Assembly (NCBI GenBank): GCA_963709605.1
Contig: CAVPWX010000020.1
Location: forward strand, 401,337 to 465,336
DNA length: 64,000 bases
Direction: 5' to 3'
Source: an uncultured Chloroflexia bacterium
GTDB lineage: Bacteria > Chloroflexota > Limnocylindria > Limnocylindrales > CSP1-4
The translations under genes were made by a program, and so were the position numbers. Of this stretch, positions 45,186 through 64,000 are shown piece after piece. The stretch's first letter is position 1. Each line of letters begins with the position of its first letter. Below the pieces are notes generated by a model. The model saw only the letters and a program-made list of their open reading frames with translations, was not told the origin of the DNA and did no database searches.

Positions 45186-46054
45186 GTGACCACCGACACC
45201 CAGCCGGCCCCCAGCCGGGACGTCCGGATCGGCGCCGACGCGATCGCGGCCGGCGCGAACTCGGCGCTCGACGAGGAGATGGCGTCCCTCCCCACGGCCG
45301 TCTCCCTGCGCAACGTCCACCTCCACTACGGCTCGTTCCGGGCCGTGAAGGACGTGACGATCGACATTCCCGAAGAACCGGATCACCGCCCTCATCGGGC
45401 CGTCCGGCTGCGGCAAGTCGACGCTCCTCCGCTCGATCAACCGGATGAACGACCTCATCCCGAGCGCCCGCGTCGAGGGCGAGATCCTCTTCCACGGCGA
45501 GAACCTCTACGCCGACTACGTCGACCCGGTCGAGGTCCGGCGGAGGATCGGGATGGTCTTCCAGAAGGCGAACCCGTTCCCCAAGTCGATCTACGACAAC
45601 ATCGCCTTCGGCCCCCGGATCACCGGCTGGAAGGGCGACATGGACCAGCTCGTCGAGGCGTGCCTGCGGCGGGCGGCGCTCTGGAACGAGGTGCAGGGAC
45701 AAGCTCGGCGATTCGGGCCTCGCCCTCTCGGGCGGCCAGCAGCAGCGCCTCTGCATCGCCCGGGCGATCGCGACCGAGCCGGACATGATCCTCATGGACG
45801 AGCCCTGCTCCGCCCTGGACCCGCGCTCCACGCTCCAGATCGAGGAGCTCATGGCGGAGCTCAAGGAGAAGTACACGATCGTCATCGTGACCCACAACAT
45901 GCAGCAGGCGGCACGGGCATCCGACTTCACCGTCTTTCTCAACATGGACGATGATCGGGCCGGCTACATCGTGGAGCAGGGTCCGACGGCCCAGATCTTC
46001 ACCAACCCGAAGAACCAGATGACCGAGGATTACGTTTCCGGGCGCTTCGGCTGA
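45186..46054 (+). CDS. pstB: Phosphate import ATP-binding protein (at least three apparent frameshifts)
   Basis: Walker A (GPSGCGKST), [14 protein letters not shown] and [13 protein letters not shown] lie in different frames. A single extra g in cccGaagaaccgg causes the first shift. Confidence 0.85.
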
Positions 46055-46071
46055 GCGGGAGGAGAGAGCAC

Positions 46072-46827
46072 GTGACCGAGCGAGATCCCCAGCAGGAGCC
46101 GGTGCTCGACCGCCAGGTCGAGGAGATCCTGCGCGGGGTCGAGGGCGACATCCCCGAACCCGTGGTTGCGCTGCCCCGCAGGCCCCTCGACCGCGAGGAG
46201 CGGACGATCAAGGATGTTCTCCTCCGGATGGGCAGCATCATCGAGGAGCGGATCCGCCTCACTGTGGAGGCGCTCGAGACGCACGACGACGCGAAGGCGC
46301 TCGCCGTCATCGAGGGCGACGAGGAGATCAACGCCCTCCAGGTCCAGGCGATGGATCACGTGGTCCTGGCGATCGCCACCCAGCAGCCGGTGGCCCGCGA
46401 CCTGCGCTTCCTCCTCGCGCTCGACCGGATCGGCGCCGAGCTGGAGCGGATCGGCGACTCGGTCGCGAACGTCGCCAAGCGGGCCCGCGAGCTCGCCCCG
46501 GTGCCGCCCCTGGAGGGCCACCTGGCGATCCCCGAGATGGGGCGCATCGCCGCCCAGTTCCTCGCCGACACCATGCGGGCGCTGGTCGACAGCGATGCCG
46601 CGGCGGCCCGCGAGGTGGCGACCCACGACGACGACATCGACGCCCTCTACCACCGCTGCGTCGACCGCCTGGTCGAGCTCGCCAAGGCCGACCCCGACAA
46701 CGTCGAGCGGGCGATGAAGCTCCTCATCGCCGCCCGCTACATGGAGCGGGTCGGCGACCACATCACGAACATCGCGGAGGACGTCGTCTTCGTCTCCTCG
46801 GGCCAGCGCGAGGACCTCAACCCGTGA
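46072..46827 (+). CDS. phoU: Phosphate signalling complex protein PhoU
   Basis: Two PhoU repeats. RBS GGGAGGAGAG before the GTG at 46072. Confidence 0.85.
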   Translation: MTERDPQQEPVLDRQVEEILRGVEGDIPEPVVALPRRPLDREERTIKDVLLRMGSIIEERIRLTVEALETHDDAKALAVIEGDEEINALQVQAMDHVVLAIATQQPVARDLRFLLALDRIGAELERIGDSVANVAKRARELAPVPPLEGHLAIPEMGRIAAQFLADTMRALVDSDAAAAREVATHDDDIDALYHRCVDRLVELAKADPDNVERAMKLLIAARYMERVGDHITNIAEDVVFVSSGQREDLNP

Positions 46828-47258
46828 CGGGGGCCGCGCGGGTGCTGGTCGTCTGCACCGGCAACGCCGCGCGGAGCCAGATGGCCGAGGCGTTCCTCTC
46901 CCGCGAGGGGGTCGCCGCGGCATCGGCCGGGACGCACCCGGCCGGCGTCCACCCGCTCACCGTCGCCGTCCTCGCCGAGGTCGGCATCGACTGGTCCGGG
47001 GCCCATTCCAAGGGGATCGGCGAGATGCTCGACGGGCCCTGGGACCTCGTCCTGACCGTCTGCGACGATGCCCGCGAGGCGTGCCCCGTCGTGCCCGGGG
47101 CACGGCGGACCGCCCACGAGGGGTTCCCGGACCCGGCCGCGGCGACGGGCACCGAGGAGGATCGGCTCGCCGCGTTCCGGGCCGCCCGCGACGCGATCGC
47201 CGCCCGGATGACGACCCTCGCGGCGGACCTCCGCGCCGAACGGGAACCCGCCGGATGA
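46824..47258 (+). CDS. arsC: Arsenate reductase, thioredoxin-coupled LMW-PTP family (or LMW protein-tyrosine phosphatase)
   Basis: CTGNAARSQMAE P-loop, and a Cys-X7-Cys pair (TVCDDAREACP) as in ArsC Cys82/Cys89. It lacks the DPYY motif. The GTG overlaps the phoU stop (GTGA). Confidence 0.65.
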   Translation: MTGAARVLVVCTGNAARSQMAEAFLSREGVAAASAGTHPAGVHPLTVAVLAEVGIDWSGAHSKGIGEMLDGPWDLVLTVCDDAREACPVVPGARRTAHEGFPDPAAATGTEEDRLAAFRAARDAIAARMTTLAADLRAEREPAG

Positions 47259-48601: not shown

Positions 48602-50471
48602 TCAGGCGACGAGCGCGGTGGGGGCGAGGGTTCGCTCGAGGAGCTCGGTCAGCCGGTCGAGGCCCATGACCTCGCCGTCGAGCAGGGGCACCTCGAGGAC
48701 CGGGACCGAGAAGCGCTGCTCGATGTCGGCGAGGTATGACTGCTGCATGTTCCAGCGCGCCCGCGAGTACGGCGTCTGCAGGGCATCGTCGGGCAGGACC
48801 ATGTTGGCGACGACGAGTCCCAACGGGATCCCGAGCGATTCCAGCTCGGCGATGGCGCGCGTTGCCTCGACGATCGGCGTTGCCTCCGGGTACATCACGA
48901 AGGCGAACGTGCTCTCGGCCGGGTCGCGCATCATCTCGATGACCCGGCTGAACTGGGCCTTCGCGACGTCGTCGGCGGCGGCCGTGTCGACCGAGGCGAA
49001 GACCTTGATGTCGATCTGGCGGCTCCAGTCGATGGGGAGCTCGAGCAGCCGCAGGGTGTGGCCCGTCGGCGCCGTGTCGAAGACGGTGACGTCGAACGCG
49101 TCGCGGCTGGCCAGCTCGATGAACTGGTCGAACGCCGCCATCTCCTCGGTGCACGGCGAGTCGAGCTCCTCGCGCATCGCGGCGATCGAGGCCGGGCTCC
49201 GGCCGCGCGCGACCGCGTCGGCAATGATCCGATCGGTGTAGGCGATGGCCGCGGCCTTGGCGTCGACGCGGGCCGCCCAGAGGCCGTCCACGCCGTCCAC
49301 CGGCGCGGGCTCCGTCCCGACCGTCGCGCCGAGGACCTGCCCGATGTGGGCCGCGGGATCGGTCGTCACCAGGAGGGTGCGATGACCCTGGCGCGCCGAC
49401 CAGAGGGCGGTGGCGCAGGACGCGACCGTCTTGCCGACGCCGCCCTTGCCGGCAAAGAAGATCGTCCGAGGGCTCCCGTTCGGCAGGAGCGCCGCCGCCA
49501 CGGCCGCCTCGTCGTCGCGCGTCGCCCGCGTCGACCCGCGGTCCGCATGGCCGAAGGCCGGCCTCGTGGCGTGCTCGTCGGCGAGGAGCGGGACCAGGGC
49601 CCGCAGCCGCGCGATCCCGCGGACCTCGCCGTCGAGGAGCGGGACGCGCCGGGTCGGCATCGGCAGCTGGCGCGCGATCTCGGCGAGGTAGCGCTCCTGC
49701 ATCGCGATGCGGGCAGCGAAGAACGGGGTCGAGGCCTCCTCGGCGGGCAGGATCCCGTTGACGATGAGCTCCGTCGTGACGATCCCGAGGCGGGCCAGCT
49801 CGGCGCCGGCGCGCCGCGTCTCGGCGATCGCGGTCGCCTCTGGATGGAGCACGAACGCGAACCGTGTCAGCGACTGGTCGCGCAGCGCGGCAAGTGCCCG
49901 CTCGTACTTGACCTTCGCCTCGGCGATGGCCGCCGCGGGGCCGATGCACGTCTGGCCGGCGCCCGCGTCGGCCTGCGAGATGCTCTTCGACCACGCCTCG
50001 GGCAGCTCGAGCAGGCGCACCGTGTGGCCGGTCGGCGCCGTGTCGAAGATCACCAGGTCGAAGCCGGGCGCCGGTGGGCGGCGCTGCGGGGGCCGGCGCC
50101 GTCGGGTCGAGGAAGTCGGCGAACCGATCGAAGGCTGCGACCTCCGCGGTGCAGGGCCCGGCGAGCTGCTCCTCCATGACCCGCACGATCTCCGGCGGGA
50201 AGATCTCGCGGATCGGGGCGAGCGTCCGGTCGGTGTACTCGGCAGTCGCACGGTCGGGGTCGATCTCCATCGCCGACAGGCTCGGCACGCCCACGATCCG
50301 GGTGATCGCGTGGCCGATGGGCTGCTCGAACACGTCCGCGAGGTTGGATGCCGGGTCCGTCGTCACGATCAGGACGCGCGTGCCGGCATCGGCCTCCGCG
50401 ACCGCGGTCGTGCAGGCCATCGTCGTCTTGCCGACGCCGCCCTTGCCGGAGAAGAAGAGGAACTGGGTCAC
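48602..50471 (-). CDS. arsA: Arsenite-stimulated ATPase ArsA (apparent frameshift near 50100)
   Basis: Two halves, each with a P-loop (GKGGVGKTT, GKGGVGKTV) and the DTAPTGHT signature. Cys are present at the expected metalloid-site positions (GPCTAEVAAFDRF, GQTCIGP, SPCTEEMAAFDQF). Confidence 0.8.
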
Positions 50472-50498: not shown

Positions 50499-50834
50499 TC
50501 AGGCGTTGCTGGTGAGCTCGGCGCGGAGCTCGTCGAGGGTTGGGTAGGCGTCGGTCTTCACGATGCGTCCGCCCATCACGGTGATCGGCAGGACCTCGAG
50601 CTGGCGCTCCTTGATCAGCTGGTAGACCTCGCGGTTGCGCATGAAGGCCTGGGGGTCCGCGGTCATCATGTGGCGGACCACCGTCCTGCCCTCGGCCTCG
50701 AGCGTGAAGACCGCCTCGCTCAGGTCGACGAGCGTCGTATCGAGCACGGGACCGCAAAGCCCCGTCGGGCAGCAGAGCGGCGGGTCGAAGATCTCGACGT
50801 CGGGGGTCGCGGGGCCGGACAGCTGATCACTCAT
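50499..50834 (-). CDS. arsD: Arsenical resistance operon metallochaperone/repressor ArsD
   Basis: MSDQLSG...IFDPPLCCPTGLCGP N-terminal vicinal Cys motif and a thioredoxin-like fold. 111 aa. Confidence 0.75.
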   Translation of the reverse strand: MSDQLSGPATPDVEIFDPPLCCPTGLCGPVLDTTLVDLSEAVFTLEAEGRTVVRHMMTADPQAFMRNREVYQLIKERQLEVLPITVMGGRIVKTDAYPTLDELRAELTSNA

Positions 50835-51102
50835 GGGACGCTTGCTCCTGTGGGTGGCGGAGTGGAGCCGGGGCGGCCGGCTGGGTGAGCACGAGAGGAT
50901 CGACCGGTGAACGTGCCGCGGCCCGGGCGGCGTCAGCCGCGCTCCTGCCGCGGACCAGGTCACGGATGCGGTTGAACGCCAGCTCGAGGAGGGGCGTCTC
51001 GAAGAAGGGCCCGCAGGCACCTCCCGGGCAGCACGTCGGCTCAGCGAGTAGGTCGGTATCGGTCGCTCGGGGGTTGTCGGTCGCGTCATGCATGTAGAGC
51101 AT
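50827..51102 (-). CDS. ArsD-like N-terminal paralog (truncated or degraded)
   Basis: Contains TCCPGGACGP and LELAFNRIRDL, but the C-terminal half does not resemble ArsD. It overlaps the arsD start. Confidence 0.45.
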   Translation of the reverse strand: MLYMHDATDNPRATDTDLLAEPTCCPGGACGPFFETPLLELAFNRIRDLVRGRSAADAARAAARSPVDPLVLTQPAAPAPLRHPQEQASHE

Positions 51103-51403
51103 CCGACTGCAGAGCCTCGGCGACGGCGCGCTCGATGGCGGAGACGTTGAGCTTCCCGCCGCTGAAGCGGCGGATCCCGTCGATCATCACGACCGGCGGA
51201 ACGGCCTCGCCGGCCGCGATCGCCGCCTCGACGTCCGGGTGTCGGGCCATCTCGGGACCGAAGAGCTCGGCGTACTCGAAGGCGACGGCCGGCCCGAACC
51301 GCTCGGCGAGGCGCCGCTCGACGAACGCCGCGGCCGCCCGCCACGTCTTCCCGGGGTCGCAGGCTGCCATGGGCACCCCTACCACGACGACCGTGCTGGT
51401 CAT
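51086..51403 (-). CDS. Small thioredoxin-fold-like protein (possibly YuzD/DUF1462-like), hypothetical
   Basis: MTSTVVVVGVPMAACDPGKTW...; weak pattern similarity to DUF1462 disulfide oxidoreductases. The ATG overlaps the arsR stop. Confidence 0.35.
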   Translation of the reverse strand: MTSTVVVVGVPMAACDPGKTWRAAAAFVERRLAERFGPAVAFEYAELFGPEMARHPDVEAAIAAGEAVPPVVMIDGIRRFSGGKLNVSAIERAVAEALQSDALHA

Positions 51404-51825
51404 CGCGAGACCTCCGCGGCCAGTGGCAGGCGCGACAGTGGCGACGGCTCGAGACCCGTCGTACTGCGGGAGCCGCAGTCGGTGCACAGGCAGGCCGTGG
51501 CCGCGTCGGTGGTGGGAGTGAGGAGATCGACGACCGCGGCCCGCAGCGCCTCGACCCGCTCGACGTCGAGGGAGTAGAAGACCCAGCGGCCGCTCCGCCG
51601 CTCGCGGAGCAGGCCAACGCCCCGCAGCGTCCGAAGGTGGTGCGAGACGAGTGCCGTGCTCATGCCGAGCGCGTCGCCGACGTCGCAGACGCAGTGCTCT
51701 CCGTGGGCGAGGAGGGCCACGATGCGGGCACGGTTCGGCTCCGCGACCGCCTGCAGGACGGCGAGCTGATCGTGCGCCAGAGGGAGTGCGATCCCGTGCG
51801 CGGGGTGGGCTTTCATGGCTCCCAT
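51400..51825 (-). CDS. arsR: ArsR/SmtB family As(III)-responsive repressor
   Basis: HTH plus the GEHCVCDV metal site, like ELCVCDL in R773 ArsR. A C-terminal extension carries CLCTDC. Confidence 0.75.
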   Translation of the reverse strand: MGAMKAHPAHGIALPLAHDQLAVLQAVAEPNRARIVALLAHGEHCVCDVGDALGMSTALVSHHLRTLRGVGLLRERRSGRWVFYSLDVERVEALRAAVVDLLTPTTDAATACLCTDCGSRSTTGLEPSPLSRLPLAAEVSR

Positions 51826-51850
51826 TCTAACAACTGTTAGACCAACGTGT
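51826..51850. promoter_or_regulatory. ArsR-type operator candidate, ATTCTAAC-aact-GTTAGACCAAC (TCTAAC-N4-GTTAGA palindrome), abutting the arsR start
   Basis: Read directly. AT-rich. Near-identical to the site at 52907-52930. Confidence 0.5.
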
Positions 51851-51861
51851 GTTTGACGGAA

Positions 51862-52153: not shown

Positions 52154-52843
52154 TCACGTGCTGACCACCATGAACGCCTCCGCCAGGCGCCCGTTCGGGA
52201 GCCCGCCCTCGGCGGCCAGGTCGACCAGGCGGGCAGTGACGCTGCGCTCCAGGTCGGTCATCTGGTCGGTCTGGCTGTGGTGCTCGCGCAGTGCCGCAAG
52301 CCTCCGATCGATGGTGCCGGTGACGTCCACCCAGTGGTTGGGCGTCGGCGCGCCGAAAAGCCAGGCCTCGGGCACCTCCCACTCGACGAGGCCCTCGTGC
52401 CGGGCGAGGGTCGGGTGCGCCAGGGGGTTGCGGGCGTCGGGGTAGATCGCGGCGATCGACGCCTCACCCGCGGCGATGTGGTCGGGGTGAAGCTCGCAGA
52501 TGCGACGCCAGTTGCGCTCGGGCGAGTGAATGAGCATGCGCTGCGGTCGCACCTGGCGGATGACCCGGGTGATGTCGCGGCGCAGCTCCATGGTGGCGAC
52601 CAGCTCTCCGTCACGATAGCCGAGGAAGCGCACGTCGCGGACGCCGAGGACGGCGGCGGCCGCCACCTGCTCCCGCCGCCGCCGGGCAGCCACGTCGGCA
52701 CGGGTGGCGGCACGATCGACGCCGCCGGCGTCGCCGTCGGTGATGACGCAGTAGGTGACCGCGATGCCGGCGTCCGTCAGCAACGCCACCGTCCCGCCGG
52801 CGCTGAAGTCGACGTCGTCGGGGTGCGCGGCGACGACGAGCAC
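52154..52843 (-). CDS. PIG-L/LmbE-family N-acetylglucosaminyl deacetylase (MshB/Mca-like)
   Basis: VLVVAAHPDDVDF and PIG-L fold motifs. GTG start at 52843. Confidence 0.7.
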   Translation of the reverse strand: MLVVAAHPDDVDFSAGGTVALLTDAGIAVTYCVITDGDAGGVDRAATRADVAARRRREQVAAAAVLGVRDVRFLGYRDGELVATMELRRDITRVIRQVRPQRMLIHSPERNWRRICELHPDHIAAGEASIAAIYPDARNPLAHPTLARHEGLVEWEVPEAWLFGAPTPNHWVDVTGTIDRRLAALREHHSQTDQMTDLERSVTARLVDLAAEGGLPNGRLAEAFMVVST

Positions 52844-52906
52844 GCGCTCGATCGAGCCCGGATTTCAGCATGGCAGGGCGGTCCCACGCGACGAGTGGTG
52901 GTCCAT

Positions 52907-53650: not shown

Positions 53651-54689
53651 TCAGCCCGTCGATGCAGCCCGGTGCCCGGCGTGCCGCTCCGCCACGATCT
53701 CGGCCAGGATGCCGAGCGCGATGTCGGCCGGCGTGTGGCCCCCCAGGTCGAGCCCGACCGGGGCGTGGATCCGGGCCAGCTGGGCGTCGTCGAGCCCCGC
53801 CTCGCGCAGGCGCGCCAGCCGCTGGCCATGGGTCCGCCGGCTCCCGAGCGCGCCGACGTAGAAGGCGCCCCGCCGCAGGGCGGTGATGATCGCCGGGTCG
53901 TCGATCTTCGGGTCATGGGCCACGGCCACGACGTGGGCGGCCGCGTCGATGCCGGCCCGGTCGGCGAGCTCGTCGGCCCAGCCGAGCAGCAGCTGGTCGG
54001 CGTCGGGGAACCGCTCACGGGTCAGGAACGCGGCCCGGGGGTCCACCACGACCGTCTGCAGACCGATCGCGTGGGCCAGGCGGACCAGGTAGACGGCGAT
54101 CTCGCCGGCCCCCGCGATGATGAGGCGGGCGGCGGCGAGCATCTCGAGGAAGACGTCGCGCCCGCCGGCCCGGACGATGCGGGAGGCGCCGGCACGGAGG
54201 GCGTCCCGGGCAAGGTCCGCGAGCTCGGCGTCGGCCGCCACGTCGCCAAGAGAGCCGGAGCGGATCCCCGCCGGCGTCGAGGACGACACGCTCCACGTCG
54301 GCGGCCTGCCGACCAGCCGGGAGCGGGGTGGCGATCAGCAGCGCCCGGCCCTCCCCTGCCGCGTCGAGGACCACGTCGGGCAGGACCGGCTCGACGAGGA
54401 CGTCGATCTCGCCGCCGCAGGTGAGGCCCACCTCGGCGGCCCGCTCGTCGGTGACCCCGTAGCGCACCAGCTCGCGATAGCCGCCGCGCCGGGCAGCCTG
54501 GACGGCCTCCGCCGCGGCGCCCTCGACGCAGCCCGCGGAGACGCTCCCGGCAAGCCGGCCGTCGTCGGCGGCAAGGAGGGTGCTGCCGATCTCGAAGGGG
54601 GCCGACCCGACGGACCGGACGAGCGTCGCCCGGCCGAACCCCACCCCCTCGGCTCGCCAGCGAGCGCCGGTCGCCAGGACGTCCCTCAC
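53651..54689 (-). CDS. XdhC/CoxI-family accessory protein (apparent frameshift near 54270)
   Basis: XdhC N-terminal domain (ORF 54015..54689) and Rossmann-like C-terminal domain (ORF 53651..54289, LIIAGAGEIAVYLVRLA). Confidence 0.7.
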
Positions 54690-54726: not shown

Positions 54727-55078
54727 TCATCGCGCGTTCTCCTCGGCGTCGAGCACCTCTAGCGCCCACCCGTAGGCGGCCACGCTGGCCGGGAATCCGG
54801 CGGTGGGGATCGCCAGCACGATCGCGTGGAGCAGCTCCTCCCGCGTCAGCCCCTCGGCGAGCCCGCGCCGCACGTGCGAGCGCACGGCGCCCTCCGACGC
54901 CAGGCCGATGGCGATGCCGAGCTTCACCAGGCGCTGCTCGCGGGCGCCCAGCGGCCCGGCCTCGCGAACGCGAGCGGCGAGGCCCTCGTACGCCTCGACC
55001 ACGTCGGGCAGGTCGCGCCGGACCTGCTGGTAGATGCGGGGCGTGTACCCCGGTTCCTTCGACCCGTCGTCCACCATC
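54727..55078 (-). CDS. Carboxymuconolactone decarboxylase (AhpD-like) family protein
   Basis: AhpD-like core pattern (EQRLVKLGIAIGLASEGAVRSHV). ATG at 55078 with a GGGAG RBS. Confidence 0.7.
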
Positions 55079-55179
55079 GTGTCTCCCTGGGATCCGGCCC
55101 CTCGCCGCCACGGCAGCGCCATGCGCGTCGACCACGATGGTACCGCGCACGCCGACCCGGCCGGTCGGGGCCGCGCAGT

Positions 55180-56710
55180 TCACGTGAGCGACGGAAACAG
55201 CGTCCGGTCGGTGTGCGGCAGGAAGAGCGCCGCCGTGTACTCGTCGAAGTAGCGCGGCTCGACGGTCAGCTCGAGGCAGGTGATCGACGAGGCGATCTCT
55301 CGCGCGCGCCGCCACGCCGCGCGCGAGAGAAGCGCTGCATGCGCGCCCGCCAACGAGCTGTTGCCGATGAACTGGATCCGCTCGCGCGGGATGTCGGGCA
55401 GGAGCCCGATCCGTACTGCCTGCTCGATCTCCAGCGATTGGCCGAAGTTGCCGGCGATGAAGACTCGCTCCACGTCAGCAAACGCCAGGCCCGCGTTCGC
55501 AAGCAAGATTTCGCGAACCCGCGTAGAGGGCGGCCTTGTCGCGAATGAGGTTCGCAATGTCGCCCTGCCGCAGCGCGATGTCGCGCCCGACGGCTGTCTC
55601 GTTCGCCGAAGCCAGAACGACCTCGGCGTATCCTTCGCGGCGACGCACGCTGGGCGCGGCGAGGTCGACCTTGCCGGCGCGGTCGATAGCGCCGACCTGG
55701 AGGAACGCGCCGAGCGCCTCGATGAGCCCAGAACCACAGATCCCCCGAGGCGGCTGGCCGCCAACGGTGGCATAGGCGAGACGACCATCGTCGGCCCAGA
55801 CGCGGTCGATCGCGCCGGGTAGCGCTGCCATCCCCCACTCGAGACCGCACCCCTCGAACGCGGAGCCAGCAGAACCTGAGCATGCCATCAGGAATTCGCG
55901 GTTGCCCAGTACCGTCTCGCCATTGGTGCCGATGTCGATCAGGATGGAAAGCGGTTCCTCGTCCGCGATCCGTGTCGAGAGCAGGCCGCCGGTTACGTCG
56001 CCGCCCACGTAGCCGCTCGCCGCCGGGAGGAGATAGAGCGGCGCGCCTTCGCCGACGTTCAATCCCACTTGGGCGACGTCGAGAACCGGAAACGCGGTGG
56101 CCGCCGGCACGTATGGCTCCCGGCGGATACTGCCGGGGTCGAGGCCAAGGAGCAGGTGCATCATGACGGTGTTGCCCGCCATGGCCACCGCCGCGATGTC
56201 GTCCTGGCCGACCCGCGCCTCGGCGCCCAGCGCCGCCACGAGCTCGTTCAGTGAGTCGAGAGCCGCCTGGCGCAGCGCTTCGAGCCCACCCGGTTCCTCG
56301 GCGTGCATCATCCGCGACGTGACGTCCATGCCGAAGATGCGCTGCCCGTTGTAGACGAGGTGAGATCCGAGGACCGCGCCCGATTCGATGTCGACCAGCT
56401 CTGCGACGACCATCGACGTGCCGAGGTCAACCGCGAGTCCCAGCGTGCGCGACGCTTCGCCGAGCGGTACGACGCGGACGACGCGCCACGTGTCGCCCAC
56501 ATCAGCCAGCGTCGCGTCGACCTGCCAGTCCCCGCGCCGCAGCGCTGGACCCAGGTCGCGCAGCACGGCCAGGGTCGGTTCAAGCGAACGGTCATCGAGC
56601 CGCGGCCGCAGCGTGCGCGCAACTCGTGCCCAGTCGCTCGTCGTATCGCTGAGCGAGGGTGGGTCGACCGTGAGAGACACCCGTTGCAGCAGAGCATCGT
56701 CCGCGCGCAT
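55180..56710 (-). CDS. ASKHA-fold DUF4445 protein (RACo-like putative corrinoid reductive activase without an N-terminal ferredoxin domain; apparent frameshift)
   Basis: LAVDLGTSMVVAEL, IDIGTNGETVLG and GICGSGLIEALG motifs match the RACo C-terminal ATPase. The C-terminus is in ORF 55180..55788. Confidence 0.55.
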
Positions 56711-56937
56711 CTGCATCTCCTTGGATCTCCGCGACACCCGCTCCGTCGTCATCGGGAGCCTGCAGTTGGCGTTCGCCATGGCGTCGTCGACCGCGCCGAC
56801 GCCCAATGCTGTCCGAGGCTTCTTGCCGGGCGCGCGGGACTGCGGCATCCTGAACCGTGGCGGGCGCTTCGCCGTTCGTGATCCTAACCCGTCATGGTGC
56901 GGCCGACCTGCGAGGACGACCAGAGGGGAGAGCGCAC

Positions 56938-57186: not shown

Positions 57187-57921
57187 GTGGCTGAGATCAG
57201 GAAGGTCGATCCGGCGCCGGACTACCCGCCCGAGGAGGGCTGCTACCTCCGGGGCAACGACTACTCGCCCGTGGCGGTGCTAGTCATCCTGAAATGGATC
57301 CGGGAGGAGACTCCGCCCGAGATCGAGGCGCTCGTCCGGGTGGGCGTCGAGAGCGGGGCGGCCCTCTCGGGCACCCTCCAGACCGAGAACGTCGGGCTGG
57401 AGAAGGTCATCTGCAACGTGGTGGCCAACCCGAACATCCGCTACCTCGTCGTCTGCGGCCCCGAGTCGCCGGGGCACCACGTCGGCGAGACGATCCTCGC
57501 CCTGATGGCGAACGGCGTCGACCAGCGGAAGCGGATCGTGGGCACCAGCGCCCAGACGCCCTACCTGTTCAACATCCCGGTCGCGTCGATCGAGCGGTTC
57601 CGTCGCCAGGTCACGGTGATCGACCTGATCCACGAAGGGCGGCCGGAGGTGATCCGCGAGGCCGTCGCGGCCTGCTACCAGGAAGAGCCGACGCCCTTCC
57701 GCGATCGCCTCCTGCACGATCCCGGCGCCTGGCCGGATCCGCCCATCAGCGGCCGGATCACCTGGCGCGTCACCGACCCGACGAGGGAACCCAAGAGCGA
57801 GGAGGAGCGGGCCGGGCAGGAACGGATCCGGGCGCTGATCGACCGCGCCAGGAAGGCCGCCGAAGCGAGGCACGGCGGCCCCCCGGACCCGTCGGGGGGC
57901 GAAGCCGGCTCGCCGGGCTAG
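57187..57921 (+). CDS. MtrA-like protein (homolog of tetrahydromethanopterin S-methyltransferase subunit A, cobamide-binding fold), soluble
   Basis: TENVGLEKVICNVVANPNIRYLVVCGPESPGHHVGET is closely similar to the MtrA core (TENLGIEK...NPNIRFLVVCG.E..GH). Confidence 0.55.
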   Translation: MAEIRKVDPAPDYPPEEGCYLRGNDYSPVAVLVILKWIREETPPEIEALVRVGVESGAALSGTLQTENVGLEKVICNVVANPNIRYLVVCGPESPGHHVGETILALMANGVDQRKRIVGTSAQTPYLFNIPVASIERFRRQVTVIDLIHEGRPEVIREAVAACYQEEPTPFRDRLLHDPGAWPDPPISGRITWRVTDPTREPKSEEERAGQERIRALIDRARKAAEARHGGPPDPSGGEAGSPG

Positions 57922-58001: not shown

Positions 58002-58256
58002 CTACTCGTCCAACCAGACGGCGATGTTGCCGGCCGAGGGGATCCGTCCCGCGCTCACCACCTTGCCGTCGATCACGAGGCCCGGGGTCGACAGCACGCC
58101 ATAGGCGGCGATCTGGGCGTGGTCGGTCACCTTGACGATCTCGGCTTCGACGCCGGCCATCATGACCGCCTCGCGGGCGTTCGCCTCGAGCTGCTTGCAG
58201 TTGTCGCAGCCGGGACCAAGAACCTCGATTCTCGTCAAGTGAAGGCCTCCATCCAT
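58002..58256 (-). CDS. Small thioredoxin-fold redox-active disulfide protein (TIGR00412-like)
   Basis: 84 aa with a GPGCDNCK CxxC motif. Confidence 0.7.
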   Translation of the reverse strand: MDGGLHLTRIEVLGPGCDNCKQLEANAREAVMMAGVEAEIVKVTDHAQIAAYGVLSTPGLVIDGKVVSAGRIPSAGNIAVWLDE

Positions 58257-58318
58257 GGCGCGCCGGGCGCGCCGTTCTCAGCGGTGGGACATGGCCGCCG
58301 GGCGGGCGGCGCGCATGG

Positions 58319-58648
58319 TCACGCGAGGATCTCCCCGAGCGCCTCGAGCGCCCGCCGGCAGGCGGCGGCGTCGCGCTCGTAGTAGACCCGCCGGGTATCG
58401 GCGCCGACGCGGCTGGCGCGCACCAGCCCGGCGTCGCGGAGGCGGGCGAGGTGGTTGCTCACGTTGTTCTGCTGGGCGCCGAGGGCGGCGGCCATCTCGC
58501 AGACGCAGACGGGCCCGTCGCGGAGCATCCGCACGATGCTGGCCCGGTTCGGGTCGGCAAGGAGCGCGGCGGCCGCCGTGGCATCGCTCACGTCGGGCGC
58601 CGGGAGGTTCATTCGCAGGTCCTGGAGGACCGGCAGCTCAATCGGCAT
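58319..58648 (-). CDS. arsR: ArsR/SmtB family metalloid-responsive repressor
   Basis: HTH with the GPVCVCEM metal-binding site. Confidence 0.8.
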   Translation of the reverse strand: MPIELPVLQDLRMNLPAPDVSDATAAAALLADPNRASIVRMLRDGPVCVCEMAAALGAQQNNVSNHLARLRDAGLVRASRVGADTRRVYYERDAAACRRALEALGEILA

Positions 58649-58693
58649 CGGAGGTCTCCTCTGGCGTGCCGTTCATGGACGTGGCGATCGTTG

Positions 58694-59449
58694 TCATGTC
58701 AGGAGGATCCAGGCGCGCTGGATCGCGAGCGCCACGAGGGCGACGGCGAAGATCCGGGACAGGGTCTGGCTCTTCACCCAGCCGGCCGTGAAGCGAGCGC
58801 CGAGCCAGGCCCCGATGACCGCGGCGATCGAGGTGACGATCACCGTCGGCCAGTCGAAGGTCGCGGTCGGGAGGTGGGTGGCGAAAGCCGAGAAGGACGG
58901 CAGCGTCACCGCGACGGAGTTCGTGGCAGCGGCCAGGCGGGCGGAATAGCCGACCAGGGTGAGCGTCGGCATGAGCAGGAACCCGGGGCCCACGCCGAGA
59001 AACCCGGCGAAGACGGAGATCGGCACGGCCGCGCCGGCGGCCTTCGCCCTGTTGCGGTCGGTGATCTCGGCGACCACCTCGGTCGAGGCGCCCTTCGGCA
59101 GCGCCATCCGGACGGCGAGGAAGAGCAGCACACCGACGTAGAGCCACCAGACGATGTCGACGGTGGCGAACTGGAGGAGCCAGACGCCGAGCGGCGCCCC
59201 GATCGTGGTGATCGTCACCAGGATGAGCGCACCGCGCTTGTCGACCATGCCCTTGCGCCAGAAGGCGATCGCGGCGCTGATCGCGGTCAACCCGTTGAGC
59301 AGCAGCGCCCAGGGCTGGATCTCGTTGATGAGGTCGTAGCCGAACAGCCCCAGGACGGGGATGGCGATGAAGGCGACGCCGAGGCCGAGCATCCCCGACA
59401 GGAACGACAGGCCGAACAGCAGCGGCGTCAGGAGCAGCAGCATCTCCAC
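58694..59449 (-). CDS. TauE/SafE (DUF81) family anion exporter
   Basis: 251 aa, 7-8 TM segments, GMLGLGVAFIAIP and GFLGVGPGFLLMP motifs. Confidence 0.8.
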   Translation of the reverse strand: MEMLLLLTPLLFGLSFLSGMLGLGVAFIAIPVLGLFGYDLINEIQPWALLLNGLTAISAAIAFWRKGMVDKRGALILVTITTIGAPLGVWLLQFATVDIVWWLYVGVLLFLAVRMALPKGASTEVVAEITDRNRAKAAGAAVPISVFAGFLGVGPGFLLMPTLTLVGYSARLAAATNSVAVTLPSFSAFATHLPTATFDWPTVIVTSIAAVIGAWLGARFTAGWVKSQTLSRIFAVALVALAIQRAWILLT

Positions 59450-59453
59450 GGGA

Positions 59454-59906
59454 TCAGGCCACGATCTCGAACGTCGGCTCGACGACGATCTCGGACTTCA
59501 CGGAGTTGGCGACGAGGCTGAATCTCTGCGCCGACTTCAACGCCCGGCGGGCGCGGGCCTCGACGACGGCCGGCTGCTCCGCCCCGGCGCGGATGACGAT
59601 CCGCGGCCACAGCCGCAGGTAGGTGAAGGTCTCGGTCCGGTCGAGCTCGATGAGCTTGGTTCCCTCGGCCCTGCAGTCGTACGACTGCAGGTCGAGCCGG
59701 AACCGCTCGGTCGCCCAGATGAACATCATCATCACGCAGGTGTTCGCCGCGGCGACGAAGGCATCCTCGGGCGTCAGCACCCCGGGATGTCCCTGGGCAT
59801 CGGGTGGAGCCGAGAAGGGCATCTCCGGGCCGTTGCCCAAGGTGATCTGCCCCCAGTGCTCCCCCGTCCACGTCACCGTCGTGTGGTACGTCGCCCTGCG
59901 GCTCAC
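59454..59906 (-). CDS. OsmC/Ohr-family peroxiredoxin-like protein
   Basis: OsmC fold pattern with two Cys (...AANTCVMMMF... and ...DCRAEG...). The GTG overlaps the upstream stop (GTGA). Confidence 0.7.
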   Translation of the reverse strand: MSRRATYHTTVTWTGEHWGQITLGNGPEMPFSAPPDAQGHPGVLTPEDAFVAAANTCVMMMFIWATERFRLDLQSYDCRAEGTKLIELDRTETFTYLRLWPRIVIRAGAEQPAVVEARARRALKSAQRFSLVANSVKSEIVVEPTFEIVA

Positions 59907-60615
59907 GGCCGAGACCCCGTCGGGTGGCAGAAGGCGGCGTACTCGCGCGCGAGCGCGGCCGCGTACTCCTCGTCGGTCCCGGCCGGCACGTCGTTGTAGA
60001 TCTTCACGGTCTCGAGCAGCTCCTTCGCAACCTCCGCGCCGGGCGCCTTCCCCGCGCCGCGGAACTGCTCGAAGATCAGCGGCAGGGCCGCGAGGGGAAC
60101 CGGCCGTGCCGTCCACGTCCACGGTCTGCACCGGGATGGCAGACGCGCACGCACAGCCGGCCTGCGGCGCGGCCTCCACGAACGACCCGCGGCGCCGATC
60201 CCATCGCTCCCCGAGAAGCTCGTCGACGAGGCCGGCGACCCGGTCGGCGGTCACCTCGGCCGCCTGCCGGCCGGCGGCGTCCAGGCGGCGGGCGCCCCGG
60301 GGCCGGTCCAGGCCGTGCTCGGCCAGCAGATCGGTCACGACGACGCTCGCGGCTGGTTTGCCAGAGAACTGCTCGGTGGCCCGCGCCGCGCACCGCTTTT
60401 CGCAGCCGTCGACCGCGATCGTCGGGTAGAAACGGGCGAAGGCCCGGTCGCCTTCCCCGCCGGCCAGGAAGAGCGGCAGGCAGATGGTGACCGTGTCGTC
60501 GGGGCGGAGCTGCTCCAGCACCCTGCAGTGCGGCCAGGCGGGTCACCGTCCCCTCGGCCAGCTCCTCGCCGGAGCATGCGACGATCCCGACCTTGCGCTG
60601 CGGCAGCTCAGGCAT
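59903..60615 (-). CDS. DGC-domain (PF08859-like, Cys-rich putative Zn-binding) protein (apparent frameshifts)
   Basis: MPELPQRKVGIVACSGEE..., then ...ICLPLFLAGGEGD...YPTIAVDGCEKRCAAR..., in shifted frames. Confidence 0.45.
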
Positions 60616-61013
60616 GGTCGGATGCCTCCTCGCGGGAGACCAGGTCGTCGACGACGGTGGCGATCTCCTCGGCCACCGCATGGGCGAGCTGCTGTCCGCC
60701 CTCGTTCAGCTCGGCGATGCCCCGCGGCTTCAGCTCCCGGTTCCGCCGGTACACGTCGAGCACCGCGATGCCCTGGGCGACGTGCCCTCCGCTCTCCTCC
60801 ACCATCTTGGCGGCGCAGGCGAGCTTGCAGCCGTCGATCGTCACCGCCGGATGCGCCCTGACCGCGGCGCGGGCGTCCTCGTCACCCAGGACCAGGAGCG
60901 AGAGGGCCACGAGCCCCGTGGCCCCCGGCCGCAGAGTCCTCGGTGACCTCGTAGGCGGCCTCGCGGCTGACCGTGCCGTACGTCTTGCCGATGCCGCTGC
61001 AGGGCACGACCAT
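60608..61013 (-). CDS. DGC-domain protein (paralog; apparent frameshift near 60935)
   Basis: MVVPCSGIGKTYGTVSREAAYEV..., then ...AVTIDGCKLACAAKMVEESGG. Confidence 0.5.
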
Positions 61014-61033
61014 GACCTTGCGATCTTCGGGGC

Positions 61034-61483
61034 TCACGGCTTCTTCGCTTCCTCTTCAGCCTGGGCGCGCATGACCTCGAAGTACGCCTGCGGGTCCAGC
61101 AGGCGCTCGCGGTCGGCCGGCCAGTCGGAGGCCTCGATGACGGCGAGCCACCCTTCGCCGTACGGATCCTGGTTGATGGCCTCGGGGGACAGCTCCATCG
61201 CCGGGTTCACCTCGACGACCGTACCTCCGACGGGCGAGAGCACCTCCACGTTCGCCTTGATCGTCTCGATCGTCGCCACCTCGTCGCCGGCTGCCACGGC
61301 CGTGCCCTCCGCCTTGACCTCGGCGAAGGCGACGTCGCCATTGAGCTGCTGGAGGAAGTCCGTCATCCCGACACGGACCCGGTCGCCGTCCGCGAGGGCC
61401 CAGGCGCCCTCGGCGGTGTAGAGGCGATCGGTCGCGACCCGGAAGATGAACTTGTCGACCGTGGTCTCCAGGTAGTCGGGCAT
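61034..61483 (-). CDS. gcvH: Glycine-cleavage H-protein-like lipoyl carrier protein
   Basis: GcvH fold with a lipoyl-lysine context (ATIETIKANVEV). 149 aa with an acidic tail. Confidence 0.7.
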   Translation of the reverse strand: MPDYLETTVDKFIFRVATDRLYTAEGAWALADGDRVRVGMTDFLQQLNGDVAFAEVKAEGTAVAAGDEVATIETIKANVEVLSPVGGTVVEVNPAMELSPEAINQDPYGEGWLAVIEASDWPADRERLLDPQAYFEVMRAQAEEEAKKP

Positions 61484-61488
61484 GGGTT

Positions 61489-62913
61489 CTACCGCCTCTG
61501 AAAGTGGATGGTGGCGTCGCGGAAGCCGAGCGCTGCCTCCAGCATCGCCTCCGGCAACGTCGGATGGGCGTGCGTGGTCCAGGCGAGGTCGTCGGCCGTC
61601 GCTCCGACCTGGACCGCAAGAGCCCCCTCGGCGATGAGGTCGGTGGCGTGTGGGCCCAGGAGATGAACGCCCATCACCGTGCCGCTGCCCGCTTCGCACA
61701 CCAGCTTCACCAACCCATCCATCTCGCCGAGGATGCGTGCTCGGGGATTGGCTGAGAACGGGAACTGGGTGACCTTCACGTCTGCTCCCTGCCCTTGCGC
61801 CTGCGCCGCGGTCAGGCCGACGCTGGCCAGCTCGGGCCTCGTGAAGACGACACTTGGAACGGATCGGTAGTCCACGGTGCGACTGCCGCCGCATGCGTTC
61901 TCGGCCGCCATGCGCCCGTCGACCATGGCCTTGTGCGCCAGCATCGGACCGCCGATCGCGTCGCCGATCGCCCACACGTTGGGAACACTGGTCTCCAGGC
62001 GCTCGTTCACGGCGATCGCCCGACCGCTCATCGTCACGCCGACCTCGGCCAGGCCGAGACCATCGGTGTTCGGCCAGCGTCCCGTGGCGACGAGGACCCG
62101 ATCACCGTCGACTCGCGACGGAGCGCCTTTCGCGTCGCGATGGAACACCGCCAAGCCACTTCCGGCGGGCGCGATCTCCTCCACGTGGGCGCCGGTGATG
62201 ATGCCCATGCCCCGTCGCCGGAGCAGGAGCGCCAGGCGCTGGGCAATCCCCTCGTCGGTTGCGCCCGGCAGCAGGGTCGACATCATCTCCACGATGGTCA
62301 CGCGGCTGCCAAGGGCCTCGTAGATGCAGGCGAACTCGAGGCCGATGACACCCCCGCCGACCACGATCAGGCGGTCGGGGATCTCCGCGATGTCGAGCGC
62401 CTCGGTGCTGGTGATCACGCCGGGCAGGTCGAGGCCGGGGATCGGTGGCCGGGCGGGGATCGACCCCGGGGCCAGGATCACGCGCCTGGCCGACACGTTG
62501 ATCGCGTCGCCGGTGTCGGGCTGCACCCGGAGGGTGTCGGGCGCCGAAAGGTGGCCCGTGCCGCGCAGGAGGGTGACCCCCGACCTCTTCAGCAGGTGCT
62601 CGACCCCACCGACCAACGCGTCCACGGCTCCCTGCTTGTACGCCATGAGGGCGGGCGGGTCGGGCACGACCGTCGAGATGGCGAGGCCGAACTCGTGCGC
62701 ACGCCTCGCCTTCAGCAGCAGCTCTGTCGACGTGGTCAGGGCCTTGGTCGGGATGCAGCCGATGTTCAGGCAGGTGCCCCCTACCCGCTGGTTCTCGATG
62801 AGCACCGCGCTCGCGCCCAGCTGCGCTGCACGAAGCGCGGCCACGTAGCCGGCAGGACCACCACCCAAGACGGCCACGTCGAACCGGTCGTTCATCACAG
62901 TCGACAGTGTCAC
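61489..62913 (-). CDS. lpd: Dihydrolipoyl dehydrogenase (E3)
   Basis: FAD fold (VAVLGGGPAGYVAA), redox-active disulfide (GGTCLNIGCIPTK) and HAHPTLPEA interface motif. Confidence 0.8.
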   Translation of the reverse strand: MTLSTVMNDRFDVAVLGGGPAGYVAALRAAQLGASAVLIENQRVGGTCLNIGCIPTKALTTSTELLLKARRAHEFGLAISTVVPDPPALMAYKQGAVDALVGGVEHLLKRSGVTLLRGTGHLSAPDTLRVQPDTGDAINVSARRVILAPGSIPARPPIPGLDLPGVITSTEALDIAEIPDRLIVVGGGVIGLEFACIYEALGSRVTIVEMMSTLLPGATDEGIAQRLALLLRRRGMGIITGAHVEEIAPAGSGLAVFHRDAKGAPSRVDGDRVLVATGRWPNTDGLGLAEVGVTMSGRAIAVNERLETSVPNVWAIGDAIGGPMLAHKAMVDGRMAAENACGGSRTVDYRSVPSVVFTRPELASVGLTAAQAQGQGADVKVTQFPFSANPRARILGEMDGLVKLVCEAGSGTVMGVHLLGPHATDLIAEGALAVQVGATADDLAWTTHAHPTLPEAMLEAALGFRDATIHFQRR

Positions 62914-63017
62914 ATCGCATCGGGGGGCAACGCAGGGCCATTGGTCATCAGTTGCTGGGCTTGGTGGCGACGCCGACCGCTTGACCTTCGAGCGACTCGA
63001 AGGTCTACGATCCCCGC

Positions 63018-63188
63018 ATGCGCATCGCCATTCTCTCCGGCGTCCACTCCAGTCTGCTGGCGCTCGAGGCCGTCCTGGCCCACATCGCCTGGGTCGGCGT
63101 CGTCCGGCGCACGTTCGCGGTGATGTCGTCGGCTACGCGCCCGCTTGAGTTCGCCCGCCAGCTCCGGGAGGCGCGAGGGTACGGGTGA
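63018..63188 (+). pseudogene. Remnant of a metallophosphoesterase (YfcE-like) N-terminus, about 56 codons
   Basis: MRIAILSGVHSSLLALEAVLAHI.... The GDVVGYAP motif is visible only in a shifted frame before a stop. Confidence 0.4.
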
Positions 63189-63556
63189 GAATCTCGGAGC
63201 TCGCCCATCGCGCCGGTGTCAACCCATCCGCGATCCGGTTCTACGAGGAGATCGGGGTCCTGCCATCGCCGATCCGCCAGGCGAATGGCTATCGTGCTTA
63301 CAGCACCGACGACCTCGCCCGCCTGCGCCTGGTCGTCTCGCTCCGGCGGCTCGGACTCGGACCACATGACGCGGGCCGGCTGGCGCGGCTATGTCTGGAG
63401 CGCGGTGGGATCGACGGCGACCTTGTGCCCCTGCTCGCCGACCAGCGGGCGGCGATCGCCCGCCAGCGCGCGGATCTCGACCGACTCGAGAGCGAGCTGC
63501 TCGACCTCGAGCTGACGATCGCGGCCGCTGGCCGCGCAGCAAAGGAGAAACCAACG
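63185..63556 (+). CDS. MerR-family HTH regulator; reads in frame into the next ORF
   Basis: ISELAHRAGVNPSAIRFYEEIGVLPSP...YRAYSTDDLARLRLVVSLRRLGL, then a coiled-coil region. GAGGG RBS before the GTG. There is no stop before 63557. Confidence 0.6.
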
Positions 63557-64000
63557 ATGTCCGAGGCCCCGATCCGCACCCTGTTCGTCTGCACGGGCAA
63601 CAGCGCTCGCAGCCAGCTTGCCGAGGCGCTCCTCGCGCAGTTCGGAGGATCCGATTTCGAGGTCCACTCCGCCGGGACCGAGCCGAAGGGCGTCAACCCG
63701 TTCGCGGTGGAGGTGCTCGCGAGGCGCGGGATCGACTGGTCGCAGGCGACCAGCAAGTCGGTCGACAGGTTTGTGGGCCAGTCGTTCGACTACGTGATCA
63801 CCGTGTGTGACCGCGCCCGCCAGTCGTGCCCGGTCTTTCCGGGCAGCTACAACTCCCTCCATTGGGGTCTCGAGGACCCGGCCGAGGTCGAAGGGACCGA
63901 CGAAGAGAAGCGGGCGGCGTTCGAGCGCACGGCCATGGAGCTGGGCCAGCGACTGCGACCGTTCACGGAGATCGCCCTGCGGGCCGCGGGCCGAACCCGA
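63557..64000 (+). CDS. arsC: Arsenate reductase, LMW-PTP/thioredoxin-coupled family (partial at the window end). Possibly the C-terminal domain of a MerR-ArsC fusion.
   Basis: AAGGAG-N9-ATG, CTGNSARSQLAE P-loop, VITVCDRARQSCP Cys pair. Confidence 0.7.
   Translation, partial: MSEAPIRTLFVCTGNSARSQLAEALLAQFGGSDFEVHSAGTEPKGVNPFAVEVLARRGIDWSQATSKSVDRFVGQSFDYVITVCDRARQSCPVFPGSYNSLHWGLEDPAEVEGTDEEKRAAFERTAMELGQRLRPFTEIALRAAGRTR

Follow-up and report, generated by a model that had tools for sequence, protein, structure and literature searches.

The window analysed here, a 64,000-nucleotide stretch (G+C ~70%) of a contig from an uncultured Chloroflexia bacterium, carries eight minus-strand genes at positions 58002-62913. 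Read in the direction of transcription, they encode a dihydrolipoyl dehydrogenase (Lpd), a GcvH-like lipoyl carrier, two DGC-domain proteins called here DGC1 and DGC2, an OsmC-like protein, a TauE/SafE transporter, an ArsR-family regulator and a CxxC mini-thioredoxin (Table 1). The domain identities proposed in the initial annotation hold, since the profile matches clear the curated Pfam and NCBIfam cut-offs with the single exception of the GcvH model TIGR00527. The close packing that it described was also found, with overlaps or gaps of 4-5 nucleotides throughout from lpd to tauE. GTGA overlaps join the GcvH-like gene to DGC1 (61034-61037) and DGC2 to the OsmC-like gene (59903-59906). The DGC1/DGC2 junction is a ATGCCTGA overlap. 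Gaps of 5 and 4 nucleotides separate Lpd from GcvH and OsmC from TauE, respectively, and wider ones precede arsR (45 nucleotides) and the thioredoxin gene (62 nucleotides). Gene identities, invariant residues and tight coupling, together with a core found in 46 loci and an arsenic-island context, can be seen directly. As to function, we tentatively propose from the sequences that this is an ArsR-controlled arsenic-island operon encoding a lipoyl/cysteine dithiol relay, a reading that we hold to be somewhat short of probable.

A tblastn survey gave 56 related loci (L numbers designate the loci and contigs compared). The nearest relatives are metagenome-assembled genomes (MAGs) of Chloroflexota/Anaerolineae; no database entry matched the GcvH-like or the TauE protein of the window in exact-sequence look-ups. 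All four core genes, in the order GcvH-DGC1-DGC2-OsmC, are present in 46 of the 56 loci; most of the ten others are cut off by contig ends. Recurrence of this four-gene order in 46 independent loci is beyond chance. Counting same-strand genes no more than 2.5 kb away, 44/56 loci have one for a TIGR00412-type thioredoxin, frequently at under 100 bp from the core, and 35/56 have one of the ArsR family. One or the other is near the core in 49 of the loci. Most carriers are Anaerolineae, and two loci belong to Acidobacteriota (L031 and L038). The Bathyarchaeia loci L053 and L055 have DGC genes and a GcvH-like gene, the OsmC-like gene being found in L053 only. One carrier is a cultured isolate, Ornatilinea apprima P3M-1 (L041), whose module reads trx-gcvH-DGC1-DGC2-osmC-CMD. 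The eight-gene unit initially proposed therefore stands in part. GcvH, DGC1, DGC2 and OsmC are conserved, along with the mini-thioredoxin and ArsR, but Lpd (12/56 loci) and TauE (8/56 loci, within 4 kb of the core) are lineage-specific accessories.

The second line of evidence is the genomic neighbourhood. Bona fide ars genes, defined as Acr3, thioredoxin-type ArsC, ArsD and ArsA, were found within 10 kb in 22/54 module loci versus 0/24 canonical gcvH loci from the same search. When only module loci of at least 15 kb are considered, ars genes are near 14 of 27. The Acr3 found near the module scores 448 bits with TIGR00832. Thus, from these counts and from the conservation pattern, what really forms a unit is a cysteine/lipoyl module of five or six genes that is tied to arsenic islands. 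The association of the operon with ars genes is robust and unexpected.

In the window itself, the metalloid link suggested from the gene names is borne out, as the operon lies inside an arsenic island in which the surrounding ars genes could be identified. Downstream on the same strand are genes for XdhC, a PIG-L deacetylase, an Acr3-like fragment, a second CVC-type ArsR (ArsR2), a conserved hypothetical protein, ArsD, ArsA and two YlbF-like proteins. This gene order is matched in L081 and L083, and the layout is also found in L084. The PIG-L deacetylase occupies the spot where L081 and L083 have a methyltransferase dependent on S-adenosylmethionine (SAM). The PIG-L/LmbE family includes deacetylases of low-molecular-weight-thiol biosynthesis. 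At the edge of the island, pstC/pstA-like and phoU genes (from 43537) abut an ArsC gene of the low-molecular-weight phosphatase (LMWP) type, and a pst-phoU-LMWP arrangement is also seen in L082. Genes for an MtrA-like protein, a RACo-type activase and an AhpD-like CMD protein stand between the operon and XdhC. The first two were considered as module members and rejected, since none of the three occurs in the 56 related loci, although L084, the closest relative, has retained the MtrA-like gene. This insert hints at corrinoid-dependent methyl chemistry in the arsenic island.

Table 1. Features of the operon and of the surrounding arsenic island (positions in the window)
Feature	Position	Strand	Basis and remarks
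Lpd (dihydrolipoyl dehydrogenase)	61489-62895 (open to GTG 62913)	-	TIGR01350, 489.2 bits (cut-off 408.8); PF07992/PF02852
GcvH-like lipoyl carrier, 149 residues	61034-61483	-	PF01597, 109.6 bits
DGC1, three-Cys, 142 residues after frame correction	60608-61037	-	PF08859, 55 bits
DGC2, four-Cys, C-terminal extension with CxC, 236 residues after frame correction	59903-60614	-	PF08859, 60.5 bits
Atypical OsmC-like two-Cys protein, 150 residues	59454-59906	-	PF02566, 38.1 bits (cut-off 27.5)
TauE/SafE (TSUP) membrane transporter	58694-59449	-	PF01925, 131.6 bits (cut-off 32.6), residues 11-244 covered
ArsR/SmtB metalloregulator, CVC motif	58319-58648	-	NF033788 (metalloregulator subfamily), 74.5 bits (cut-off 55); PF01022 (winged HTH_5), 55.7 bits
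MTH895/ArsE-family CxxC mini-thioredoxin	58002-58256	-	TIGR00412, 93.7 bits (cut-off 62); PF13192
MerR-type promoter candidate	62981-63011	+	-35 TTGACC, 19-nucleotide spacer, -10 TACGAT; points away from lpd
MerR helix-turn-helix + LMWP/ArsC-like fusion gene, runs off the window	63185-64000	+	PF13411/PF00376 and PF01451 in one frame
MtrA-like corrinoid methyltransferase subunit	57187-57921		NF002126, 184 bits
RACo-type corrinoid activase, frame-broken	55180-56848		Between operon and XdhC
AhpD-like CMD protein	54727-55122		Between operon and XdhC
PIG-L/LmbE-family deacetylase	52154-52864	-	PF02585, 104 bits
ArsR2, second CVC-type ArsR	51400-51861	-	Pfam; L001 orthologue comparison
ArsD	50505-50876	-	Pfam; L001 orthologue comparison
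ArsA, frame-broken	48605-50471	-	Pfam; L001 orthologue comparison
LMWP-type ArsC	46824-47258	+	Pfam; adjoins phoU and pst genes
phoU	45955-46827		Beside LMWP-type ArsC

The two DGC genes had been taken as intact open reading frames (ORFs), which they are not in the window. According to three-frame translation, DGC1 switches frame once and DGC2 twice. Both proteins exceed the PF08859 cut-off of 27 bits only once the frameshifts are corrected, and the scores in Table 1 were taken after deleting one base at each frameshift site. Contig L084 (JGI 3300027885) matches the window at 98.9% identity across 5,451 nucleotides, and its genes, the downstream MtrA-like one included, come in an unchanged order. 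The net frame-changing differences between the two are only three, all of them extra bases in the window at ~60936, ~60524 and ~60108, and both DGC genes are intact in L084. The same three insertion sites were seen in the comparison with L001 and L047. Intact orthologues are abundant in metagenomes (142 residues and 92% identity for DGC1; 236 residues and 94% for DGC2); a metagenome pattern scan gave no match to the unshifted form of frameshift site 2. Other genes of the window are frame-broken relative to their orthologues, namely ArsA, XdhC (53675-54689) and an ABC ATPase (25009-25655). The RACo gene is divided over two frames by its Pfam coordinates and PstC (43537-44046) looks frame-broken, judged from its translation alone. 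In loci of MFD-labelled MAGs (L003, L028, L039 and L082), which we take to be long-read assemblies, genes are broken at other positions. Because the DGC genes of L084 are intact and at least five other genes of the window are frame-broken, the three DGC insertions are, from these comparisons, most probably assembly errors. The indel density in the window is about one per 5-7 kb, so that any ORF-based reading of it needs frameshift-aware translation.

Lpd exceeds the cut-off of its equivalog model and falls below that of each of the MerA, glutathione reductase and mycothione reductase models. Its translation holds the redox-active CLNIGC motif within GGTCLNIGCIPTK and a C-terminal THAHPTLPE segment (His-Glu dyad region). 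Cysteines C48 and C53 of the CxxxxC motif are invariant in 13 orthologues, and the L001 orthologue is matched in one intact high-scoring segment pair (HSP). Orthologue gene calls and the upstream alignment favour ATG 62895 over GTG 62913 as the probable start. The GcvH-like carrier has its predicted lipoyl-lysine in the ETIKA motif, as initially annotated; this residue, K76, is invariant in 55/55 homologues, as is E73. The protein is below the TIGR00527 equivalog cut-off (101.6 vs 115.85 bits) and narrowly above that of the subfamily model NF002270 (117.2 vs 117 bits). The annotated genes up to 10 kb from it in L081 and L083 encode no GcvT or GcvP domains, and neither do those on the 5.5-kb contig L084. 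In the related loci, the GcvH-like gene always has the DGC genes next downstream.

Some related loci show additional genes around the carrier and lpd. In L054 and L055, a Cys-rich protein of ~120 residues (c25, with no Pfam or NCBIfam match) and an HgcB-like 2x[4Fe-4S] ferredoxin accompany the DGC/GcvH cluster. Their genes are located within the cluster in L054 (8026-11915) and directly upstream of it in L055 (7894-10462). In L053 (8727-11699), HgcB-like ferredoxin genes are just upstream on the opposite strand. These c25 and ferredoxin genes may represent an alternative electron input to Lpd. A radical SAM/SPASM protein is encoded beside the module at L083:6282-7547, L082:11952-13217, L019:4170-5360 and in six more loci; in L083 the gene is directly upstream of lpd. 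Its nearest model is TIGR04317, a tungsten-cofactor oxidoreductase maturase, at 294 bits, under the cut-off of 380. A small CxxC ORF (63-87 residues) is located directly upstream of lpd in L010, L017 and L019.

In both DGC proteins the D-G-C motif is invariant. DGC1 has three invariant cysteines (C13, C70 and C74), with an alanine at the second cysteine position, and DGC2 has four (C14, C45, C71 and C75). The cysteine lost in DGC1 is kept by most of the DGC family, as judged from 50%-identity representatives. In the C-terminal extension of DGC2, the CxC cysteines C154 and C156 are 96-98% conserved. We know of no solved structure for the DGC family (PF08859). The AlphaFold2 model of the DGC1 orthologue P0121 (mean predicted local distance difference test score, pLDDT, 91.3) has a flavodoxin-like alpha/beta fold. 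Its cysteines are positioned just past strands 1 and 3; in DGC2, a further one would be past strand 2. Because all of them would thus be at one edge of the sheet, a clustered cysteine site is likely in this model. Proteins P0244, P0261, P0287, P0302, P0306 and P0331 are single-chain tandem DGC-DGC proteins of 278-432 residues, and in P0244 a CxC motif is found in the linker joining the two domains. The existence of such natural fusions suggests that DGC1 and DGC2 work as a pair. They probably form a heterodimer with clustered Cys3 and Cys4 sites. Full-text literature searches for PF08859, COG4273 and the DGC domain returned no dedicated paper, the matches being papers on diguanylate cyclases.

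The OsmC-like protein belongs to the OsmC fold family according to its PF02566 score. Its nearest solved structures are Ta0195 (2ONF) and VCA0330 (2D7V), both without known function, and by sequence it falls with these proteins in the uncharacterised third OsmC group. Ohr/OsmC peroxidases are recognised by a cysteine pair ~60 residues apart together with a catalytic arginine and a glutamate (PMC5384416). In the OsmC-like protein, the invariant cysteines are C57, in helix 1, and C78, so that the spacing is 21 residues and the hallmark pair is missing. Cys78 is a new invariant position and is followed by Arg79 in 39/44 sequences. No OsmC-type arginine was found in the loop before helix 1. In contrast, the glutamate of the PE motif, E47, is invariant. 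The initial annotation evoked Ohr/OsmC peroxidases, but with neither a ~60-residue cysteine pair nor a catalytic arginine, a peroxidase role should not be assumed. Judged by these residues, the protein is a member of the fold family outside the characterised peroxidase subfamilies; its invariant cysteines make thiol chemistry likely.

The ArsR regulator carries its CVC pair within GPVCVCEMAAAL (motif VCVCE). Residues C48, C50 and C97 do not vary across 6 close orthologues; the third cysteine of the R773 type is missing and the conserved C97 is present instead. With the BigR model it reaches 33.5 bits, far under the cut-off of 155. In the mini-thioredoxin, the CDNC motif (C17-D-N-C20) is invariant in 35 homologues.

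The region upstream of lpd had been proposed as a target for electrophoretic mobility shift assays with ArsR. The inverted repeat found there resembles a MerR-type operator and faces the other direction. The spacer of the MerR-type promoter candidate holds a perfect 10-3-10 dyad, GACCTTCGAG-CGA-CTCGAAGGTC, at 62983-63005. A dyad in a 19-nucleotide spacer is the promoter architecture of the MerR family. The dyad was considered as an ArsR operator and rejected: it is located in an opposite-strand MerR-type spacer with a MerR gene adjacent. It is probably not an ArsR site because of this architecture and because L083, where the corresponding position is without a MerR gene, lacks the left arm of the dyad. 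About 7 nucleotides past the promoter candidate, a 56-codon ORF without Pfam match starts at ATG 63018; it may be translated from a leaderless transcript. This ORF ends in a GTGA (63185-63188) that also holds the start of the MerR-ArsC fusion gene. In this fusion, a regulator is joined to an arsenate-reductase fold, which is unusual. Just upstream of the lpd ATG, the conserved 20-mer TGTGACACTGTCGACTGTGA is unique in the window, and since it is single-copy no regulon motif can be derived from it. Scans of the operon region yielded neither a sigma-70-like promoter nor a meaningful terminator, and scans of the window gave no Rfam families or tRNAs.

The relay that we tentatively favour would work as follows. 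Binding of As(III) to the CVC-type ArsR would derepress the operon. Lpd and NADH would then reduce the lipoyl group of the dedicated GcvH-like carrier, as expected from the chemistry of these families; in relatives without an adjacent lpd, the housekeeping E3 could do this. The dihydrolipoyl arm would pass reducing equivalents to DGC1/DGC2 and to the OsmC-like protein, which are translationally coupled downstream, and the ArsE-type mini-thioredoxin could serve as an additional CxxC partner. The OsmC-like protein would be the most likely terminal reductase, with a hydroperoxide or an arsenic-linked oxidised species as substrate. TauE would be a lineage-specific exporter added to the unit; sulfite, selenite and thioarsenate, the substrates proposed for it in the initial annotation, are guesses.

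Several points weigh against this reading. ArsR-family regulators may also sense other metals, sulfite or persulfide. No ArsR operator was found for the operon, and arsR is located at its 3' end. Lpd adjoins the core upstream in only 12/56 loci. In the OsmC-like protein, Ser130 is invariant (44/44) at the position aligning with the second cysteine of Ta0195 and VCA0330, and His17 (42/44) aligns with the arginine of the Ohr GGR motif, so that the catalytic arginine is replaced. For a homologue with similar residue gaps, activity results are conflicting (PMC5384416). For the relay function we depend on sequence and analogy, and we infer the steps past gene identity, conservation and context. Finally, the relay model gives no reason for two obligatory DGC proteins, which leaves room for binding or trafficking of As(III) by the dihydrolipoyl arm and the Cys3/Cys4 sites.

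One such possibility, which we consider unlikely on balance, is arsenite capture and hand-off. The Lpd-reduced arm of the GcvH-like carrier would chelate As(III) or trivalent organoarsenicals and deliver them via DGC1/DGC2 to ArsD/ArsA-Acr3 or to TauE. If true, this would shield the lipoyl enzymes of central metabolism. Dihydrolipoate is a classical high-affinity As(III) ligand, and in ArsR, ArsD and ArsA it is usually three cysteines that bind As(III); DGC1 has exactly three invariant cysteines, the usual fourth of the family being lost, and in the AlphaFold2 model they come just after adjacent strands at one sheet edge. Co-location of ArsD/ArsA or Acr3 in many loci and the arsenic induction of DGC and ArsE-type genes in Pseudodesulfovibrio mercurii (see below) also argue for it. 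However, binding of a metal or metalloid by the DGC proteins or the carrier is a prediction, the zinc-binder label that annotators give to DGC proteins has only sequence grounds, and the invariant OsmC-like protein is left unexplained. A bolder version brings that protein in. The module would be a new arsenic-resistance determinant in which the classical arsenite target serves for defence: the lipoyl protein, held in reduced form by its own Lpd, would trap As(III) or trivalent organoarsenicals as a cyclic dithioarsinite and pass them to the DGC sites, from where they would go to ArsD/ArsA-Acr3 or TauE, with the OsmC-like and ArsE-type proteins resolving mixed thiol adducts. We regard this version, again read from sequence, as quite unlikely; if correct, it would give the DGC family (PF08859) its first function.

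An arsenic-independent lipoyl peroxide defence of the Trichomonas L/H/OsmC or bacterial Ohr kind, placed by chance in a thiol-redox island and controlled by an ArsR-family regulator that senses redox state or another metal, seems improbable. Lpd, an H-protein and an OsmC-family protein do stand in one operon, and Cys57, at the peroxidatic position, and Glu47 are retained. Neighbours in related loci include multi-thioredoxin-domain proteins, VKOR, CcdA and AhpD-like CMD proteins, and the GcvH-L protein of Staphylococcus aureus guards against oxidants (PMC12440151). On the other side, the cysteine spacing is 21 instead of ~60 residues and the catalytic arginine is missing. Moreover, ars genes are enriched near the module and absent near canonical gcvH, ArsR has the CVC motif typical of As(III) sensors and the obligatory DGC pair would again be left unexplained.

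A sulfur or sulfite module akin to sHdr-LbpA, with TauE exporting sulfite and a BigR-like ArsR sensing sulfite or persulfide, is very improbable. The carrier is similar in kind to LbpA (PMC10332631), a transporter of the TauE/SafE family is present in the operon and ArsR has a weak BigR match. This match is far below the cut-off, though, TauE occurs in few of the loci, and no genes for Hdr-like, DsrE/TusA, sLpl or LipS proteins were found in the neighbourhood clusters inspected, in the gene tables of four loci or in nine further cluster maps. Least credible is decay of the operon, with real DGC frameshifts and a module non-functional in the source organism: the three frame-changing insertions do fall in two adjacent genes and outside long homopolymer runs, but the intact DGC1 and DGC2 of the 98.9%-identical contig, the five or more other frame-broken genes in the 64 kb (ArsA, XdhC, ABC ATPase, RACo, PstC), the different break positions in MFD-labelled loci and the lack of further signs of decay, the other six genes aligning to orthologues as full-length single HSPs, argue against it.

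That arsenite attacks lipoyl groups in the cell is textbook knowledge. The presence of a dedicated lipoyl carrier, with its reductase, in the ars islands of dozens of anaerobic Chloroflexota, and of Acidobacteriota and Bathyarchaeia as well, suggests an unrecognised layer of arsenic defence, for which the very cofactor that arsenite poisons may have been recruited. Through the module, two orphan families, DGC/PF08859 and the third OsmC-like group, become open to functional study for the first time. The proposals are testable, since there is a cultured carrier, Ornatilinea apprima P3M-1, and the proteins are small and soluble. As regards annotation, GcvH and Lpd genes of this kind should not be counted as parts of the glycine cleavage system or of 2-oxoacid dehydrogenases in metabolic reconstructions from these MAGs. 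Full-text literature searches gave no description of the module and no paper in which ars operons are linked to Lpd, OsmC or a paralogue of GcvH, and the only module-related literature on PF08859 was a one-line note in the P. mercurii preprint cited below.

The proximity of DGC genes to arsR, mentioned in the initial annotation, has a documented counterpart. In P. mercurii ND132, DGC and ArsE-type genes are part of an ArsR-ArsP-ArsE-DGC operon whose transcription is induced by As(III) and As(V) (bioRxiv 10.1101/2022.10.17.512643). ArsR, the PF13192 ArsE-type thioredoxin-like protein and a PF08859 DGC protein are common to this operon and to the module. The P. mercurii operon differs by its ArsP permease and single DGC, and it has no lipoyl carrier, Lpd or OsmC-like protein.

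Two other systems employ a dedicated lipoyl carrier. Like LbpA of the sHdr pathway (PMC10332631), the module has a GcvH-like carrier set apart from glycine cleavage and assigned to a cysteine/sulfur redox pathway. Unlike it, the inspected loci have no Hdr-like subunits, DsrE/TusA or sLpl/LipS lipoylation genes, and the context is arsenic instead of sulfur oxidation. The GcvH-L/LplA2/SirTM operon of S. aureus (PMC12440151) resembles the module in having an extra stress-linked GcvH paralogue in its own operon, with lipoyl-mediated action. Its partners are entirely different, the module having no macrodomain protein, sirtuin or ligase.

With bacterial Ohr/OsmC enzymes, for which lipoylated proteins or groups are the physiological reductant (PMC5384416), the OsmC-like protein shares the PF02566 fold, the helix-1 cysteine and the preceding glutamate of the PE motif. 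In contrast, it has a serine at the resolving position and a histidine for the Ohr arginine, and the arginine at the OsmC position is missing.

By analogy, the closest known counterpart of the module is the L/H/OsmC peroxidase of Trichomonas hydrogenosomes. Reduction of an OsmC protein by Lpd and an H-protein, evoked in the initial annotation, thereby has a real precedent. As described in PMC7946386 and PMC5384416, the hydrogenosomal OsmC is supplied with electrons from lipoate through L and H, proteins of a glycine decarboxylase that is incomplete, along the path NADH to L to H to OsmC. Both systems comprise an Lpd (L), a stand-alone lipoylated H-protein without P or T and an OsmC-family protein without the canonical arginine. 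The second cysteine of the OsmC protein is at position 78 here and at ~125 in Trichomonas. The present system further differs in that its components are encoded in one bacterial operon, with an ArsR regulator and in an arsenic island, and are known from genes alone. The module, moreover, has obligatory partners in its two DGC proteins and its ArsE-type mini-thioredoxin. What we infer is thus a lipoyl-dependent thiol relay, embedded in an arsenic island and extended by two orphan families.

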